64,000 nt of DNA, from the NCBI RefSeq assembly GCF_054482525.1, contig NZ_CM137006.1. One strand, 5' to 3'. A model generated the notes under the pieces. It did not search any database. It was not told where the DNA came from and was given only the letters and a program-made list of their open reading frames with translations. The translations under genes and the position numbers were made by a program. This document shows, in pieces, positions 3,926-23,959 of the stretch (positions are counted from its first letter, which is position 1; each line of letters opens with the position of its first letter).

Positions 3926-5887
3926 TTACCCTTTTCGCTTCGGCAATGTTTTCAGCAGCTCATCCGGACTTACGGATGCCACTACGCTTCCCGGTAACGG
4001 CATTTTCAGTATGTGATTTTTGATTTTGCCAATGACGTGCATCTCGCATGGGCGGCAATCAAACTTTAGCGTTAATACTTCATCGCCGTTAACCAGTTGC
4101 ATTGGCGTCGCCTTCCAGCTTTTGATATTGCCTTTCGCCTGTTTCGGGCACAGATTAAAGGCAAAGCGCAGACAATGCTTGGTGATCATCACCGGGACTT
4201 CGCCCTTCTCTTCATGTGCCTCATACGCCGCGTCAATCAGCTGCACACCATAGCGATGATAAAATTCACGCGCTTTCTGGTTGTATACGTTCGCGAGGAA
4301 ACTCAGATGCGTTTGCGGATAAACCGGCGCAGGATCAGCAACCGGTTTACGGCTGCCCCGCTGGTAACTGGCAAGACGTGCAGCATCCAGCATGTCGGCG
4401 GCTTCACGGCGGAACTGGTTTAACAGACTGTTTGATACAAACAGCGCACCCGGCAAATTAATTTGCACATCGCGGGCGTAATAGATGGTTTGCCCCAGTT
4501 TTGCCAGACCATCCTTTAGATTGTTCATTGCTTTTTCGGCGTTATTGGCTTCGTCGAAATGCCCGTCCAGCGTATGCGTGATGCTGACACCCTCTTCACT
4601 GGTGAGGGTCAGAATCAGTTGTTCCTGCCAGCCGCCCAGTTCAATGTCTACCGCCACCCGACGTTCGCTGGATGTTTTTGTCAGTGCCTGCTGCCAGTTA
4701 TGATCAAGATTACGGTTTAGTGGGTGATGCGGGCGAATTTTGTGCAACTCTGCTGGCATTTCATTGGGCCAGACGCGGTACTGATTTTCTCCGGTTTTCT
4801 CGACCGTATTGGCACGAAAGCCGACGACTTCACGTTTAATCATCACGTTCAGGCCATCGCCATTTGCCAGTGGTTCGGAAACGGCAACATCGAGATGATC
4901 TTTCGCCACTTTCAATACTTCACCCACCGGCAGGCCGATAAATTTCGGCGAATCGAACGCGCCAATATCGCCTTTACGGGCATTCACAAAATAATCTGTG
5001 CTACCACGGTTGAAAGTCTTTTCCGTCGATGGAACAAAGAAATGTTCAGTACGACCTGATGAAGCACGCGCCAGATCGCCACGTTCTTCAATAATGGCAT
5101 CCAGCATTTGGCGATAATGCGCGGTGATATTCTTCACGTAGCTCATATCTTTGTAACGCCCTTCAATCTTGAAGGAGCGTACGCCAGCATCAATCAGCGC
5201 GCCGAGGTTGGCAGTCTGATCGTTATCTTTCATCGACAGCAGATGTTTTTCATAGGAAACCACCCGCCCCTGATCGTCTTTCAATGTGTATGGCAAACGG
5301 CACGCCTGCGAGCAATCGCCACGGTTGGCGCTACGCCCTGTTTGCGCATGAGAAATGTAGCACTGACCCGAATAGGCCACGCACAGTGCGCCATGAATAA
5401 AGAATTCAATGGTCGCGTCCGTGGCCTGGTGAATCGCGCGGATCTGCTCAAGATTCAGCTCTCGCGCCAGCACAATCTGCGTAAAGCCAACATCAGAGAG
5501 GAACTTCGCTTTTTCGACTGTACGAATATCGCACTGCGTACTGGCGTGCAGTTCAATCGGCGGAATATCAAGTTCCAGAATCCCCATATCCTGAACAATC
5601 AGCGCATCGACGCCGGTCTGGTAGAGGTTGGTAATCAGCCGTTGCGCAGGTTCCAGCTCATCATCATGCAAAATGGTGTTAAGCGTGACAAAAATTTTTG
5701 CACCATAACGATGGGCAAACGGCACCAGTTCGGCAATATCTTTCAGGCTATTACTGGCATTATGACGGGCACCAAAACCAGGGCCGCCGATATAAACAGC
5801 ATCGGCACCGTGCAAAATAGCTTCGCGGGCAATGGCGGCATCGCGTGCCGGGCTTAACAGTTCAAGTCGATGAGAAGATACGGTCAC
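3926..5887 (-). CDS. ydcP: Peptidase U32-family protein (23S rRNA 5-hydroxycytidine synthase RlhA)
   Basis: Track ORF 3926..5929 (667 aa). The 653-aa form I recall for K-12 starts at the in-frame GTG at 5887 (VTVSSHRLELLSPARDAAIAREAILHGADAVYIGGPGF...). Confidence 0.85.
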   Translation of the reverse strand: MTVSSHRLELLSPARDAAIAREAILHGADAVYIGGPGFGARHNASNSLKDIAELVPFAHRYGAKIFVTLNTILHDDELEPAQRLITNLYQTGVDALIVQDMGILELDIPPIELHASTQCDIRTVEKAKFLSDVGFTQIVLARELNLEQIRAIHQATDATIEFFIHGALCVAYSGQCYISHAQTGRSANRGDCSQACRLPYTLKDDQGRVVSYEKHLLSMKDNDQTANLGALIDAGVRSFKIEGRYKDMSYVKNITAHYRQMLDAIIEERGDLARASSGRTEHFFVPSTEKTFNRGSTDYFVNARKGDIGAFDSPKFIGLPVGEVLKVAKDHLDVAVSEPLANGDGLNVMIKREVVGFRANTVEKTGENQYRVWPNEMPAELHKIRPHHPLNRNLDHNWQQALTKTSSERRVAVDIELGGWQEQLILTLTSEEGVSITHTLDGHFDEANNAEKAMNNLKDGLAKLGQTIYYARDVQINLPGALFVSNSLLNQFRREAADMLDAARLASYQRGSRKPVADPAPVYPQTHLSFLANVYNQKAREFYHRYGVQLIDAAYEAHEEKGEVPVMITKHCLRFAFNLCPKQAKGNIKSWKATPMQLVNGDEVLTLKFDCRPCEMHVIGKIKNHILKMPLPGSVVASVSPDELLKTLPKRKG

Positions 5888-19489: not shown

Positions 19490-20020
19490 TCAGGAACGTT
19501 TACGCGGCATCATGCGTAGAAGTGTGTTGTCCTTCCAGAAATAGTGGTGTGCCAGTGCAGCCGCAGCGTGCAACCCGATGACAAAATATCCCAGATTCGC
19601 CAGCGTCTCATGCCACGACTTTAAGCTATCAACCCGTTCGAAATTGGCCTCTGATGCATAAGGCATCGTCATACCAAACGCAAACCACGGGTTACCCCGG
19701 TTATACATCATCACCAAACCAATCACTGGCAGCGCAATAAACAGGAGATAGATCACCAAATGTCCCAAATGCGCCAGTCCCGTCATCATCGGTTTTGGCT
19801 TAGGTATAATCGGCGGGGTTGGGTATTTCAGCCTTAACAAAAGACGAACCACCATCAGCACGAGAATTGTGATGCCACAGGAAACATGAATCATGTTGAT
19901 GAGTGGCCGATCGCTACGTGGGAAGAAACCACGAAACTCCATTGCGCAATACGCTGCGATAACCAGTAAAAAGACCAGCCAGTGAATGCTGATTTGTAAC
20001 CTTGAGTATTTATTTTCCAT
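19490..20020 (-). CDS. cybB: Cytochrome b561
   Basis: 176-aa form from the internal Met (MENKYSRLQISIHWLVFLLVIAAYCAMEFRGFF...); track ORF starts 12 codons upstream. Confidence 0.9.
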   Translation of the reverse strand: MENKYSRLQISIHWLVFLLVIAAYCAMEFRGFFPRSDRPLINMIHVSCGITILVLMVVRLLLRLKYPTPPIIPKPKPMMTGLAHLGHLVIYLLFIALPVIGLVMMYNRGNPWFAFGMTMPYASEANFERVDSLKSWHETLANLGYFVIGLHAAAALAHHYFWKDNTLLRMMPRKRS

Positions 20021-20208
20021 AACATTTCCTGCTTTAAAACAATTTGCCGTTAACATAACGAGCTTTTCTTAAAATTTCATTAAATATTGTTCACCCGTTT
20101 TCAGTACGTTACGTTTCACGGCAAGAATGTAGATTGCCCATCCCGCCATCCTGGTCTAAGCCTGGAAAGGATCAATTTTCATCCGAACGTTCCTGACAGG
20201 AGAAGACC

Positions 20209-21210
20209 ATGAGTAAAGTTGGTATTAACGGTTTTGGTCGTATCGGTCGACTGGTGTTGCGTCGATTACTTGAAGTCAAAAGCAACATAGACATTGTTGC
20301 TATTAATGATCTCACTTCCCCAAAAATTCTCGCCTACCTGCTGAAACATGATTCAAACTACGGACCGTTCCCCTGGAGCGTTGATTTTACGGAAGATTCA
20401 CTTATCGTTGATGGAAAAAGTATCGCGGTTTACGCCGAAAAAGAGGCTAAAAATATTCCATGGAAAGCGAAAGGCGCAGAAATCATTGTCGAATGTACTG
20501 GCTTTTATACCTCCGCCGAGAAATCGCAGGCGCACCTTGATGCTGGTGCGAAGAAGGTGTTGATTTCCGCCCCTGCCGGTGAAATGAAAACCATCGTTTA
20601 TAACGTCAATGACGACACACTGGATGGCAACGACACCATTGTTTCCGTGGCGTCATGCACCACTAACTGCCTTGCGCCGATGGCCAAAGCCTTGCATGAC
20701 AGTTTCGGGATAGAAGTCGGCACGATGACGACCATTCATGCCTATACCGGCACTCAGTCACTGGTGGATGGCCCGCGTGGTAAAGATCTACGCGCTTCAC
20801 GTGCAGCGGCAGAAAATATCATTCCCCACACTACAGGTGCGGCAAAAGCCATTGGTCTGGTGATCCCAGAACTGAGCGGCAAACTGAAAGGTCATGCGCA
20901 ACGCGTACCCGTGAAAACCGGTTCGGTGACTGAACTGGTGTCTATTCTTGGAAAAAAAGTGACTGCCGAAGAAGTGAACAACGCGCTTAAAAAGGCGACA
21001 AACAATAACGAGTCATTTGGTTATACCGATGAAGAAATAGTCTCTTCTGATATCATAGGCAGCCATTTCGGGTCGGTGTTTGATGCCACGCAAACCGAAA
21101 TTACCGCCGTGGGCGATTTACAACTGGTGAAAACGGTCGCCTGGTACGATAACGAATATGGCTTCGTCACGCAGCTTATTCGCACCCTCGAAAAATTCGC
21201 TAAACTCTGA
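20209..21210 (+). CDS. gapC: Glyceraldehyde-3-phosphate dehydrogenase C, intact reading frame
   Basis: Uninterrupted 333-aa [26 protein letters not shown]... with catalytic motif [10 protein letters not shown]. Confidence 0.9.
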
Positions 21211-21215
21211 CGCGC

Positions 21216-21245
21216 AAAGGCGGAGAGAAAAGCCTCCGCCTCTTT
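21216..21245. terminator. Bidirectional rho-independent terminator between convergent gapC and aldA
   Basis: aaaggcggagagaaaagcctccgcctcttt: stem ggcggag / ctccgcc with A-run before and T-run after. Confidence 0.65.
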
Positions 21246-21251
21246 CACTCA

Positions 21252-22691
21252 TTACGACTGTAAATAAACCACCTGGGTCTGCAGATATTCATGCAGGCCA
21301 TGTTTACCATCTGCGCCGCCAATACCGGATTTACGCCATCCGGCGTGGAAGCCTTGCATAGCTTCGAAGTTTTCACGGTTAATGTAAGTTTCACCAAACT
21401 TCAGCCCTTTAATGGCTTTCATCGCGACGTTCAAATTTTGGGTATAGATTGATGAGGTCAGGCCGTAATCACTGTCATTAGCCATTGCGATAGCCTCTTC
21501 CAGCGTGTCAAATGCGACCAATGGCAGCACCGGGCCAAAGGTTTCCTCGTGCATAATCGACATTTCCTGGCGAACATCCAGTAGCAATGTCGGCGGATAA
21601 TAATATCCTTTCCCCTCTACCGCTTTGCCACCCAACGCCACTCTCGCCCCTTCTTCTACTGCGCGCGCCACTTTTTGCTCGACCCTTTCCAGCGCCGCGG
21701 CGTTAATCAACGGCCCCATCGCAATGTCGTTGCGTTCAGCGGGGTTACCAAATTGAACCGCCTGCATCGCTTCACCCAGCCGATTGACGAACTGATCATA
21801 AATGCCTTTCTGTACATAAACACGTTCTGCACAGTTACACACTTGCCCACTATTAATGACGCGTGAATCAACGATGGCTTTGACTGCCAGTTCAAGATCG
21901 GCATCGTCCATTACGATAGCTGGTGCTTTACCACCCAATTCCAGACACACTTTGGTGATGTTTTTCGCCGCAGTCGCCATGATCTTTTCACCTGCAGAGA
22001 CGCTGCCTGTCATACTGACCATTGCGACCTTTGGGTTACCCGCCAGTTCTTGCCCAACGGTTTCACCACGCCCCAGAACAAGGTTAAACACGCCGCGCGG
22101 AAGGCCTATTTCATCGACGATTTTGGCGAATGCAATCGCATTGTTTGGCGTAAATTCACTGGGTTTAATGACAATGGTATTACCGGTCAAAAGAGCGGGA
22201 GCCATTTTGCGGGCAATGAGGAAGAACGGGAAGTTCCACGGCAGAATGCCGGTAGTCACACCAAGCGCACGTTTAAACAGAAGAATATTTTCTCCTGGAC
22301 GATCGCTTTGAATAATCTCGCCCTCGTAACGCCGTGCCCACTCCGCCATGTAATCGATATAGTCCGCAGTAAAAGCCACTTCGACTTCAGCCAGCTGCTG
22401 GATCTTGCCCCCTTCTTCAACAATCAGCGCACTGATTTCACTGGCGCGTTCGCGGATCCCGGCGGAGATTTTGCGCAACCAACTGGCGCGTTCAATGGCA
22501 GGCAATGCTTCCCATTCTGGTTGTGCACGTTCTGCTGCATCGATTGCCTTACGGGCATCCTCGGCCTGACCATCGGGAATGCGGGAAATGACAGCCTCAG
22601 TAGCAGGGTTTACCACATCAATCCATGCGTCTCCACGCCAGGTAACAAACTGTCCATCGATATACATAGGATGTTGAACGTGTACTGACAT
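21252..22691 (-). CDS. aldA: Lactaldehyde dehydrogenase (NAD-dependent aldehyde dehydrogenase)
   Basis: 479-aa ORF MSVHVQHPMYIDGQFVTWRGDAWIDVVNPATEAVISRIPDGQ...; aldehyde dehydrogenase family. Confidence 0.95.
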   Translation of the reverse strand: MSVHVQHPMYIDGQFVTWRGDAWIDVVNPATEAVISRIPDGQAEDARKAIDAAERAQPEWEALPAIERASWLRKISAGIRERASEISALIVEEGGKIQQLAEVEVAFTADYIDYMAEWARRYEGEIIQSDRPGENILLFKRALGVTTGILPWNFPFFLIARKMAPALLTGNTIVIKPSEFTPNNAIAFAKIVDEIGLPRGVFNLVLGRGETVGQELAGNPKVAMVSMTGSVSAGEKIMATAAKNITKVCLELGGKAPAIVMDDADLELAVKAIVDSRVINSGQVCNCAERVYVQKGIYDQFVNRLGEAMQAVQFGNPAERNDIAMGPLINAAALERVEQKVARAVEEGARVALGGKAVEGKGYYYPPTLLLDVRQEMSIMHEETFGPVLPLVAFDTLEEAIAMANDSDYGLTSSIYTQNLNVAMKAIKGLKFGETYINRENFEAMQGFHAGWRKSGIGGADGKHGLHEYLQTQVVYLQS

Positions 22692-22887: not shown

Positions 22888-23688
22888 TTAACGTAACGAG
22901 CGACTTTCCATCGCCTCGATGAGCACCGCATCGTGTTTCAGCGTTTGCCATGCATGGATGACTTCTGCCGGAAAATCAACGTGAACGATAAAATCTCGCC
23001 CGCGGGGACCGTAGCCATCGCTATCATCGCGTAAACGCGGCAGCTCGCCAGTGAGTAGTGAGAGATAACGCTCAACCGGCCATAATCCTTGCAACGGATT
23101 AACAAAGATTACACTGTCTGCGTTGTTTCCTAGCTGAGGAACGAATCCGGGATAACTTAACCAGCGTGGTGCATCGGGATTGTCCCCAGTCATACGGCGG
23201 AACGTCGCCATCGTGCGCCGCTGCATGGTGGGGTCCTGAACAACGATAGCCGTATGAACTCGTTCTACGGCCTGATTCAATAGCGCGATGCTAAAGCGTG
23301 CGTTTTCACCGCAGTTTGTTGACTGGTCTTCAATCCAGATTTTTTCATGCGGAATGTGCCAGAACTGATGAGCGATATCCGCCAGGATGGTAGCTTCTGC
23401 TCTGCCAGTGGTGCGGATAGTGTTGTAGTGCGGATGCTGTGCGATGGCACTATACAAAAAAGTTGTCGAGTGACCGATACCACCACTAATCAGTAGAGGA
23501 ATTTGCTGATCGCGGGCAATCTTGCATGCCGCATCGATAGTTGGCATAACCGCATTGCCTGCAAGGATCACGCAATCGGCCTGATACGGCATCTCACCGG
23601 AGAAATCATCCTGCGCCAGCCACTGACCGATAACATTTATGGCATCTATGGTTGCCGGCGAAAGCGTCGGAAACGGGGTAATGTTCAT
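22888..23688 (-). CDS. ydcF: DUF218-domain protein
   Basis: 266-aa [32 protein letters not shown]... Confidence 0.85.
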
Positions 23689-23902
23689 GGTTCCTCCTTA
23701 TCGTTCCCTTAAGAATACTGCGCGAGATAATAATGAGAAGCGGAGCACTCTGAAAGGAGGAAGTCGTATTTCCTTAACCGCCACTCCGCAAGCCTGCCAT
23801 ATCTTTTAAGGAAATGCTGTAGATAAACATTATTCATCTTGCAGCTGAGAATTGTATTTTTCTGAATTCCTGAATTTTTGCCCTTACCGTTTTAGAATTA
23901 AT

Positions 23903-23932
23903 AAAAAACCCGGCGCTAAATGCTTACCGGGT
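23903..23932 (-). terminator. Rho-independent terminator downstream of hrpA
   Basis: On the minus strand: hairpin acccgg...ccgggt followed by a T-run (plus-strand aaaaaacccggcgctaaatgcttaccgggtttt). Confidence 0.6.
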
Positions 23933-23959
23933 TTTAGATTTATCAGGCAAATAGCAGTG

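Follow-up and report, generated by a model that had tools for sequence, protein, structure and literature searches.

The GAPDH-family proteins of Escherichia coli itself are the closest described relatives of the gene analysed here. GapA is the housekeeping glycolytic GAPDH (PDB 1S7C/1GAD), and Epd/GapB is an erythrose-4-phosphate dehydrogenase. In addition, K-12 carries a gapC pseudogene (gapC_1/gapC_2, b1417/b1416), which is flagged by PGAP in MG1655 as 'frameshifted; internal stop'. Reports of an intact E. coli gapC go back to Espinosa-Urgel & Kolter 1998 (summarized in PMC2949598); PMC2949598 states that environmental isolates have an intact gene and that expression is preferential in fresh water. 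Moreover, the 'type 1 GAPDH' EcGAPDH1, for which crystal structures are available (PDB 7C5F/7C5G/7C5H and related entries), is an active NAD-dependent GAPDH with a high turnover of glyceraldehyde-3-phosphate (G3P) with NAD+ and a Km for G3P of 0.73 mM; its activity is abolished by C150A and drops about 8000-fold in H177A (Zhang et al., Biomolecules 2021, PMC8615399). Neither the word gapC nor the source of EcGAPDH1 appears in PMC8615399.

The window, which is the whole 64,000-nt stretch of contig NZ_CM137006.1 (NCBI RefSeq assembly GCF_054482525.1) that was analysed, carries a gapC that we consider, with a probability of about 93%, to be a functional, intact chromosomal gene for a second type I, NAD+-dependent GAPDH at the ancestral cybB-aldA site, with activity and structure taken from a 99%-identical allele and with expression and role presumed. 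An intact gapC is already known: most E. coli carry one, the gene is annotated as intact, and there are crystal structures and assays of its product.

Reading frame, family and genomic position of gapC

The gapC frame is unbroken from its ATG to the TGA at 21208-21210, both in the list of open reading frames and in the raw sequence, and when the intergenic regions are aligned, the AGGAG in front of it does not vary among E. coli, E. albertii and Citrobacter (Table 1). The first-pass annotation had described an uninterrupted 333-aa GAPDH frame with the catalytic cysteine motif, and this description was confirmed by the frame, the ribosome-binding site, the domains, the SCTTNC motif and His177. 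The identical DNA of E. coli PCN033 is called by PGAP as an intact 'gap' CDS (WP_000048644.1). Several gene calls of 383 aa from metagenomes or assemblies (P0002-P0005, P0007, P0024 and P0028) are 99% identical and about 50 residues longer, which presumably reflects the calling of an upstream in-frame start; an in-frame stop rules out such an extension of about 50 residues in the window.

Table 1. Positions of gapC, its functional sites and its neighbours in the window.
Feature	Position	Strand	Basis or remark
cybB	19490-20020	-	adjoins gapC, divergent
Divergent cybB-gapC intergenic region, presumed promoter region	20021..20208		conserved blocks
Conserved block TGGTCTAAGCCTGG	20152-20165		candidate promoter or operator element
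Shine-Dalgarno AGGAG	20198..20202	+	6 nt 5' of the gapC ATG; read off the sequence
gapC CDS, type I glyceraldehyde-3-phosphate dehydrogenase	20209..21210	+	333 aa plus stop
GFGRIG, GxGxxG dinucleotide-binding (NAD) motif, codons 8-13	20230..20247	+	translation
Asp34 codon GAT, within AIND	20308..20310	+	sequence
Codon 39 AAA (Lys), site of the first K-12 lesion (TAA there)	20323..20325	+	pairwise alignment
Catalytic Cys150 codon TGC, SCTTNC motif	20656..20658	+	sequence
Catalytic His177 codon CAT, within TTIHAYTG	20737..20739	+	sequence
A7 homopolymer run, site of the second K-12 lesion (A6, -1 frameshift)	20952..20958	+	alignment
8-bp GC-rich hairpin AGGCGGAG / CUCCGCCU	21218..21241		between convergent gapC and aldA; folding
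aldA	21252-22691	-	adjoins gapC, convergent
ydcF	22888-23688	-	beyond aldA

The protein matched the NCBIfam model TIGR01534 for type I GAPDH far outside chance (447 bits against a cut-off of 367.2, E = 3.9e-134), with residues 3-325 corresponding to model positions 1-330, and it contains the Pfam domains Gp_dh_N (PF00044, residues 3-102, E = 9e-36) and Gp_dh_C (PF02800, residues 155-313, E = 4e-58). The sequence features of a type I GAPDH were found, namely a Rossmann GxGxxG motif together with a C-terminal catalytic domain, the cysteine of SCTTNC, and a histidine about 27 residues further on. By established GAPDH enzymology, Asp34 would be the acidic residue (Asp32 in the numbering of B. stearothermophilus) through which class I GAPDHs prefer NAD to NADP. 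The scores for the other subfamilies fell below their cut-offs, with 302.5 bits against 662 for the GapA-type equivalog PRK15425, 277 and 280 bits against 530 and 539 for the Epd models TIGR01532 and PRK13535, and 307 bits against 450 for the ArsJ-associated GAPDH NF033735. GapC of the window is thus a bona fide type I GAPDH and the orthologue of neither GapA nor Epd. It shares fold, catalytic motif, length and predicted chemistry with GapA, but the two are separate paralogues with 47% identity (GapA sequence from PDB 1S7C), encoded at different loci and differently regulated, gapC being sigma-S-associated according to the K-12 literature. Epd/GapB likewise has the superfamily and the domain pair in common with GapC, but differs in locus and in pathway, which is pyridoxal phosphate biosynthesis.

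The nearest enzyme with known structure is EcGAPDH1, which is identical to GapC of the window at 330 of 333 residues over the full length and has the same Cys150, His177 and length. The three differences (I29, K262 and N265 in the window; V, Q and T in EcGAPDH1) are conservative and lie away from the catalytic motifs. The EcGAPDH1 sequence is also that of the commonest intact gapC allele (WP_000048667.1) in the 20-genome sample described below. In the proposed reaction, Cys150 would attack D-glyceraldehyde-3-phosphate with His177 acting as the base, the hydride would pass to NAD+ held by the N-terminal Rossmann domain, and phosphate would resolve the thioacyl intermediate to give 1,3-bisphosphoglycerate. 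Knockout data on a Klebsiella pneumoniae 'gapC' (PMC8243499) were left out of the evidence, as the gene names in that paper may not denote orthologues.

The gene order in the window is that of the classical gapC locus, with trg, hokB, ydcA and cybB pointing leftward, gapC rightward, and aldA, ydcF and hrpA leftward. The cybB/gapC/aldA arrangement is likewise found in K-12 and Citrobacter, which places the gene where its orthologue group is expected. Citrobacter keeps the whole order from cybB through gapC and the convergent aldA to ydcF and hrpA, and Klebsiella keeps gapC with the convergent aldA and ydcF. GapC orthologues in Citrobacter, Klebsiella (oxytoca group), Enterobacter, Kluyvera and Trabulsiella are 87-90% identical to the window protein, and that of E. 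albertii is 97% identical. The gene is best explained as the 'eubacterial-type' second type I GAPDH of Enterobacteriaceae, in its ancestral position between cybB and aldA.

A few variations were observed around this locus. In E. albertii (L029, 4001-5852), ydcF directly follows gapC, with no aldA at that position. PGAP flagged aldA as 'frameshifted' in two of the 20 sampled genomes, 2013C-3250 (L010) and PSS-10 (L015), both with intact gapC; either true lesions or sequencing errors in homopolymers may underlie these flags. As well, the RefSeq record of PCN033 has a 705-bp IS200/IS605 tnpA insertion between hrpA and ydcF that the window lacks; its site corresponds to the ydcF-hrpA intergenic region at about 23689-23959 of the window, with a breakpoint near 23900-23905.

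Inactivation in K-12 and frequency of the intact gene

The K-12 pseudogene shares the cybB-aldA locus with the window and has 95.6% nucleotide identity to it over 1.2 kb, and its promoter region and ribosome-binding site are largely as in the window. Pairwise alignment located two disabling lesions in K-12: a nonsense change in codon 39 (AAA to TAA, K39*) at window position 20323, and a -1 frameshift in codons 248-250 (window 20952-20958), where the A7 run is one A shorter. Neither of these, nor the substitution R18G of K-12 gapC, is present in the window. Between the window and MG1655, the gapC alignment has 40 substitutions and one indel, 35 of the 40 being at third codon positions; against a repaired K-12 gapC, 35 differences are synonymous and 4 are non-synonymous. 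Four substitutions (R18G, K39* and two silent ones) and the frameshift are all that separate K-12 gapC from its nearest intact allele, so its inactivation was recent.

The first-pass annotation had described gapC of K-12 as a split pseudogene, and the PGAP flag and the mapped nonsense codon and frameshift bear this out; the alignment with K-12 that it proposed contained no identical intact frame. Its suggestion of a lineage other than K-12 was also upheld, the window being 99.99% identical to PCN033 and, over the gene region, 95.6% identical to K-12. Over 63 kb, the window and PCN033 differ by six mismatches, and the 1.2-kb gapC region is 100% identical; apart from the missing IS200/IS605 insertion, this near-identity points to a source very close to PCN033, either a relative or a different version of its genome.

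Of 5426 complete E. coli genomes, 5417 have the gapC region; in 5407 of the 5426 the match covers 80% or more of the 1.2-kb query, with identities of 90-100%. The nonsense allele was counted across all 5426 complete genomes with a 41-mer that matches only with the K-12 T (TAA) as its central base, and it is present in 1155 of them (~21%). The corresponding AAA 41-mer matches 3718 genomes. These two 41-mers left about 540 genomes unplaced owing to a third AAA haplotype with two flanking SNPs, which adds several hundred genomes; the AAA total is approximate, about 4100-4260, because the probe counts overlap. The frameshift was scored on sampled loci, SNPs at 20940, 20943, 20949 and 20973 leaving fewer than 28 conserved bases around the A run; the sampled loci were used instead of 41-mers since megablast counts would track the haplotype and not the length of the run.

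The sample consisted of every second genome of an evenly spaced ranking (n = 20), with all frames re-checked individually. An intact 333-aa gapC is present in 16 of these genomes, both K-12 lesions are present in three, and one has lost the 3' part of gapC through an IS1-associated deletion that also truncates aldA. The shortened A6 run occurs together with TAA in all four K-12-type loci examined. The k-mer and sample estimates agree, at ~80% intact and ~21% K-12-type; an intact gapC is the majority state of E. coli and not a rarity. In the truncated case, strain SCPM-O-B-7615 (L022, 3110-5287), IS1A has taken the place of four-fifths of gapC, on its 3' side, together with the 3' end of aldA, and this is an independent, IS-mediated route to the loss of gapC.

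Of the 40 carriers of the nonsense allele that were listed, laboratory or engineered strains make up only about a quarter, and the sources of the others are humans, pigs, poultry, dogs, cattle, a housefly, a bullfrog, sediment and seawater. The mostly natural sources among the listed carriers point to the K-12-type lesion as a natural lineage polymorphism and not laboratory decay alone. Five 'plasmid' matches to gapC were considered as mobile copies and rejected, being chromosomes or chromosome fragments labelled as plasmids; the 4.8-4.9 Mb 'plasmid' records NZ_CP141089.1, NZ_OL790696.1 and NZ_CP134663.1 in PLSDB, for example, carry the chromosomal gapC locus and are mislabelled chromosomes.

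Expression, selection and alternative readings

In K-12, a ChIP-seq peak of sigma-S RNA polymerase lies between gapC_1 and cybB (PMC4447067), gapC-1/gapC-2 transcripts drop upon rpoS inactivation and climb in slow-growing cells (PMC2759082), and gapC_1 is among the genes regulated in carbon-limited culture (PMC4512719). The cybB-gapC intergenic region of the window shows 11 differences from K-12 in its 188 positions, so that the K-12 promoter data can be applied to the window by inference only. Within that region, the block TGGTCTAAGCCTGG, about 45 nt 5' of the gapC ATG, is conserved from E. coli to Citrobacter, E. albertii included, and is almost unchanged in Klebsiella, and a second conserved block, TTCATTAAATATTGTTC, lies upstream of it; both are candidate promoter or operator elements judging from their conservation. 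A simple scan of 19900-21500 found no sigma-70 consensus promoter. Most likely, gapC is transcribed from a sigma-S-dependent promoter in this intergenic region when cells grow slowly, starve or live outside the host, and would then supply an isozyme auxiliary or alternative to GapA. At the other end of the gene, the hairpin between gapC and aldA (-15.5 kcal/mol, z = -1.75) is followed by only a weak T tract (CTTTC) and is a plausible, though weakly supported, candidate for a shared terminator; it was found by folding alone and was not called by the terminator scan.

The 14 distinct intact gapC alleles have a mean dS of 0.093, a mean dN of 0.0034 and a mean dN/dS of 0.037, and these rates indicate strong purifying selection. 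The potential functionality claimed by the first-pass annotation is thereby supported, both by a dN/dS of about 0.04 among intact alleles and by the active, 99.1%-identical enzyme. Between the window and K-12, the synonymous divergence of gapC is 2.5-3 times that of its neighbours, with a dS of 0.164 for gapC and 0.054-0.069 for cybB, aldA and ydcF, and dN is similar at about 0.005. The 40 differences from K-12 are unevenly distributed, 14 of them clustering at gapC positions 700-800, and mosaic (recombinant) haplotypes such as L004 are seen in the allele table. Intraspecific recombination and/or weak codon selection are candidate causes to which the high dS and the mosaicism are attributed.

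It may be argued that gapC of the window has an open frame but is silent or in decay, as a cryptic relic so far spared a disabling mutation in this lineage. The 1155 K-12-type genomes live without gapC and are mostly natural isolates among those listed, the promoter scan called no canonical sigma-70 promoter, and gapC has diverged more from K-12 than its neighbours have (4.1% versus 1.5-1.9%). This extra divergence, however, is nearly all synonymous (gapC dN 0.005), and neutral drift would bring dN/dS near 1; the frame is also intact in most of the sampled genomes and in other genera, and transcription from the gapC promoter region is documented even in K-12, all of which makes a relic very improbable. 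A physiological need for a second GAPDH is still conjectural, about one-fifth of E. coli genomes, mostly from natural sources among the matches listed, managing without gapC.

An even smaller chance is given to a different primary activity of GapC, which might be that of an Epd-like E4P dehydrogenase, an NADP-dependent gluconeogenic GAPDH such as B. subtilis GapB, or an arsenate-linked GAPDH. Models of the Epd, ArsJ-associated and further GAPDH subfamilies do match GapC with E < 1e-80, and gapC was grouped by expression with putative gluconeogenic genes (PMC2759082), but the subfamily scores stay far under the curated cut-offs, the flanking genes are cybB and aldA with no arsJ beside gapC, Asp34 favours NAD, and NAD+-linked turnover of G3P is rapid in the 99%-identical enzyme (PMC8615399). 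The least credible of the alternatives is that the intact gene was recently acquired horizontally, or that foreign DNA replaced a pseudogene in this lineage. A review does term gapC 'laterally acquired' (PMC1796617), and its dS above that of the flanking genes, its mosaic alleles and its slightly low GC content (47.9% versus 50.1% for the window) could be read in this way. Against this, the gene occupies the same position with the same neighbours in E. coli, E. albertii, Citrobacter and partly Klebsiella, it is nearly universal among the complete E. coli genomes, no mobile element adjoins it in the window, and the mosaicism is among E. coli alleles, all tested alleles having 87-88% identity to E. 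albertii and 78% to Citrobacter. A functional gapC encoding an NAD+-dependent type I GAPDH is the reading retained here; in K-12 and about 21% of sequenced E. coli the gene was recently lost, by a nonsense mutation together with a homopolymer frameshift.

Meaning for E. coli

The strain of the window has the usual copy of the second GAPDH gene, and K-12 is the exception. What is mildly new is quantitative, namely the presence of TAA in 1155 of 5426 genomes, the joint occurrence of the two lesions and the strong purifying selection indicated elsewhere; these counts refine an older statement that limited gapC mutations to laboratory strains. K-12-based metabolic models and gapA-knockout designs omit a GAPDH isozyme that is present in most wild and pathogenic E. 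coli. It is possible, if rather doubtful at present, that gapC is no redundant spare but a condition-specific, sigma-S-controlled GAPDH isozyme for slow growth, low temperature or life outside the host, retained by selection in most E. coli and in related genera, and that the strains with the K-12-type double lesion form a lineage, natural and widely distributed, that has shed this niche need, and are not a product of laboratory decay. If this were true, the state of gapC, intact or broken, would offer a simple genetic marker for an ecological division of the species.
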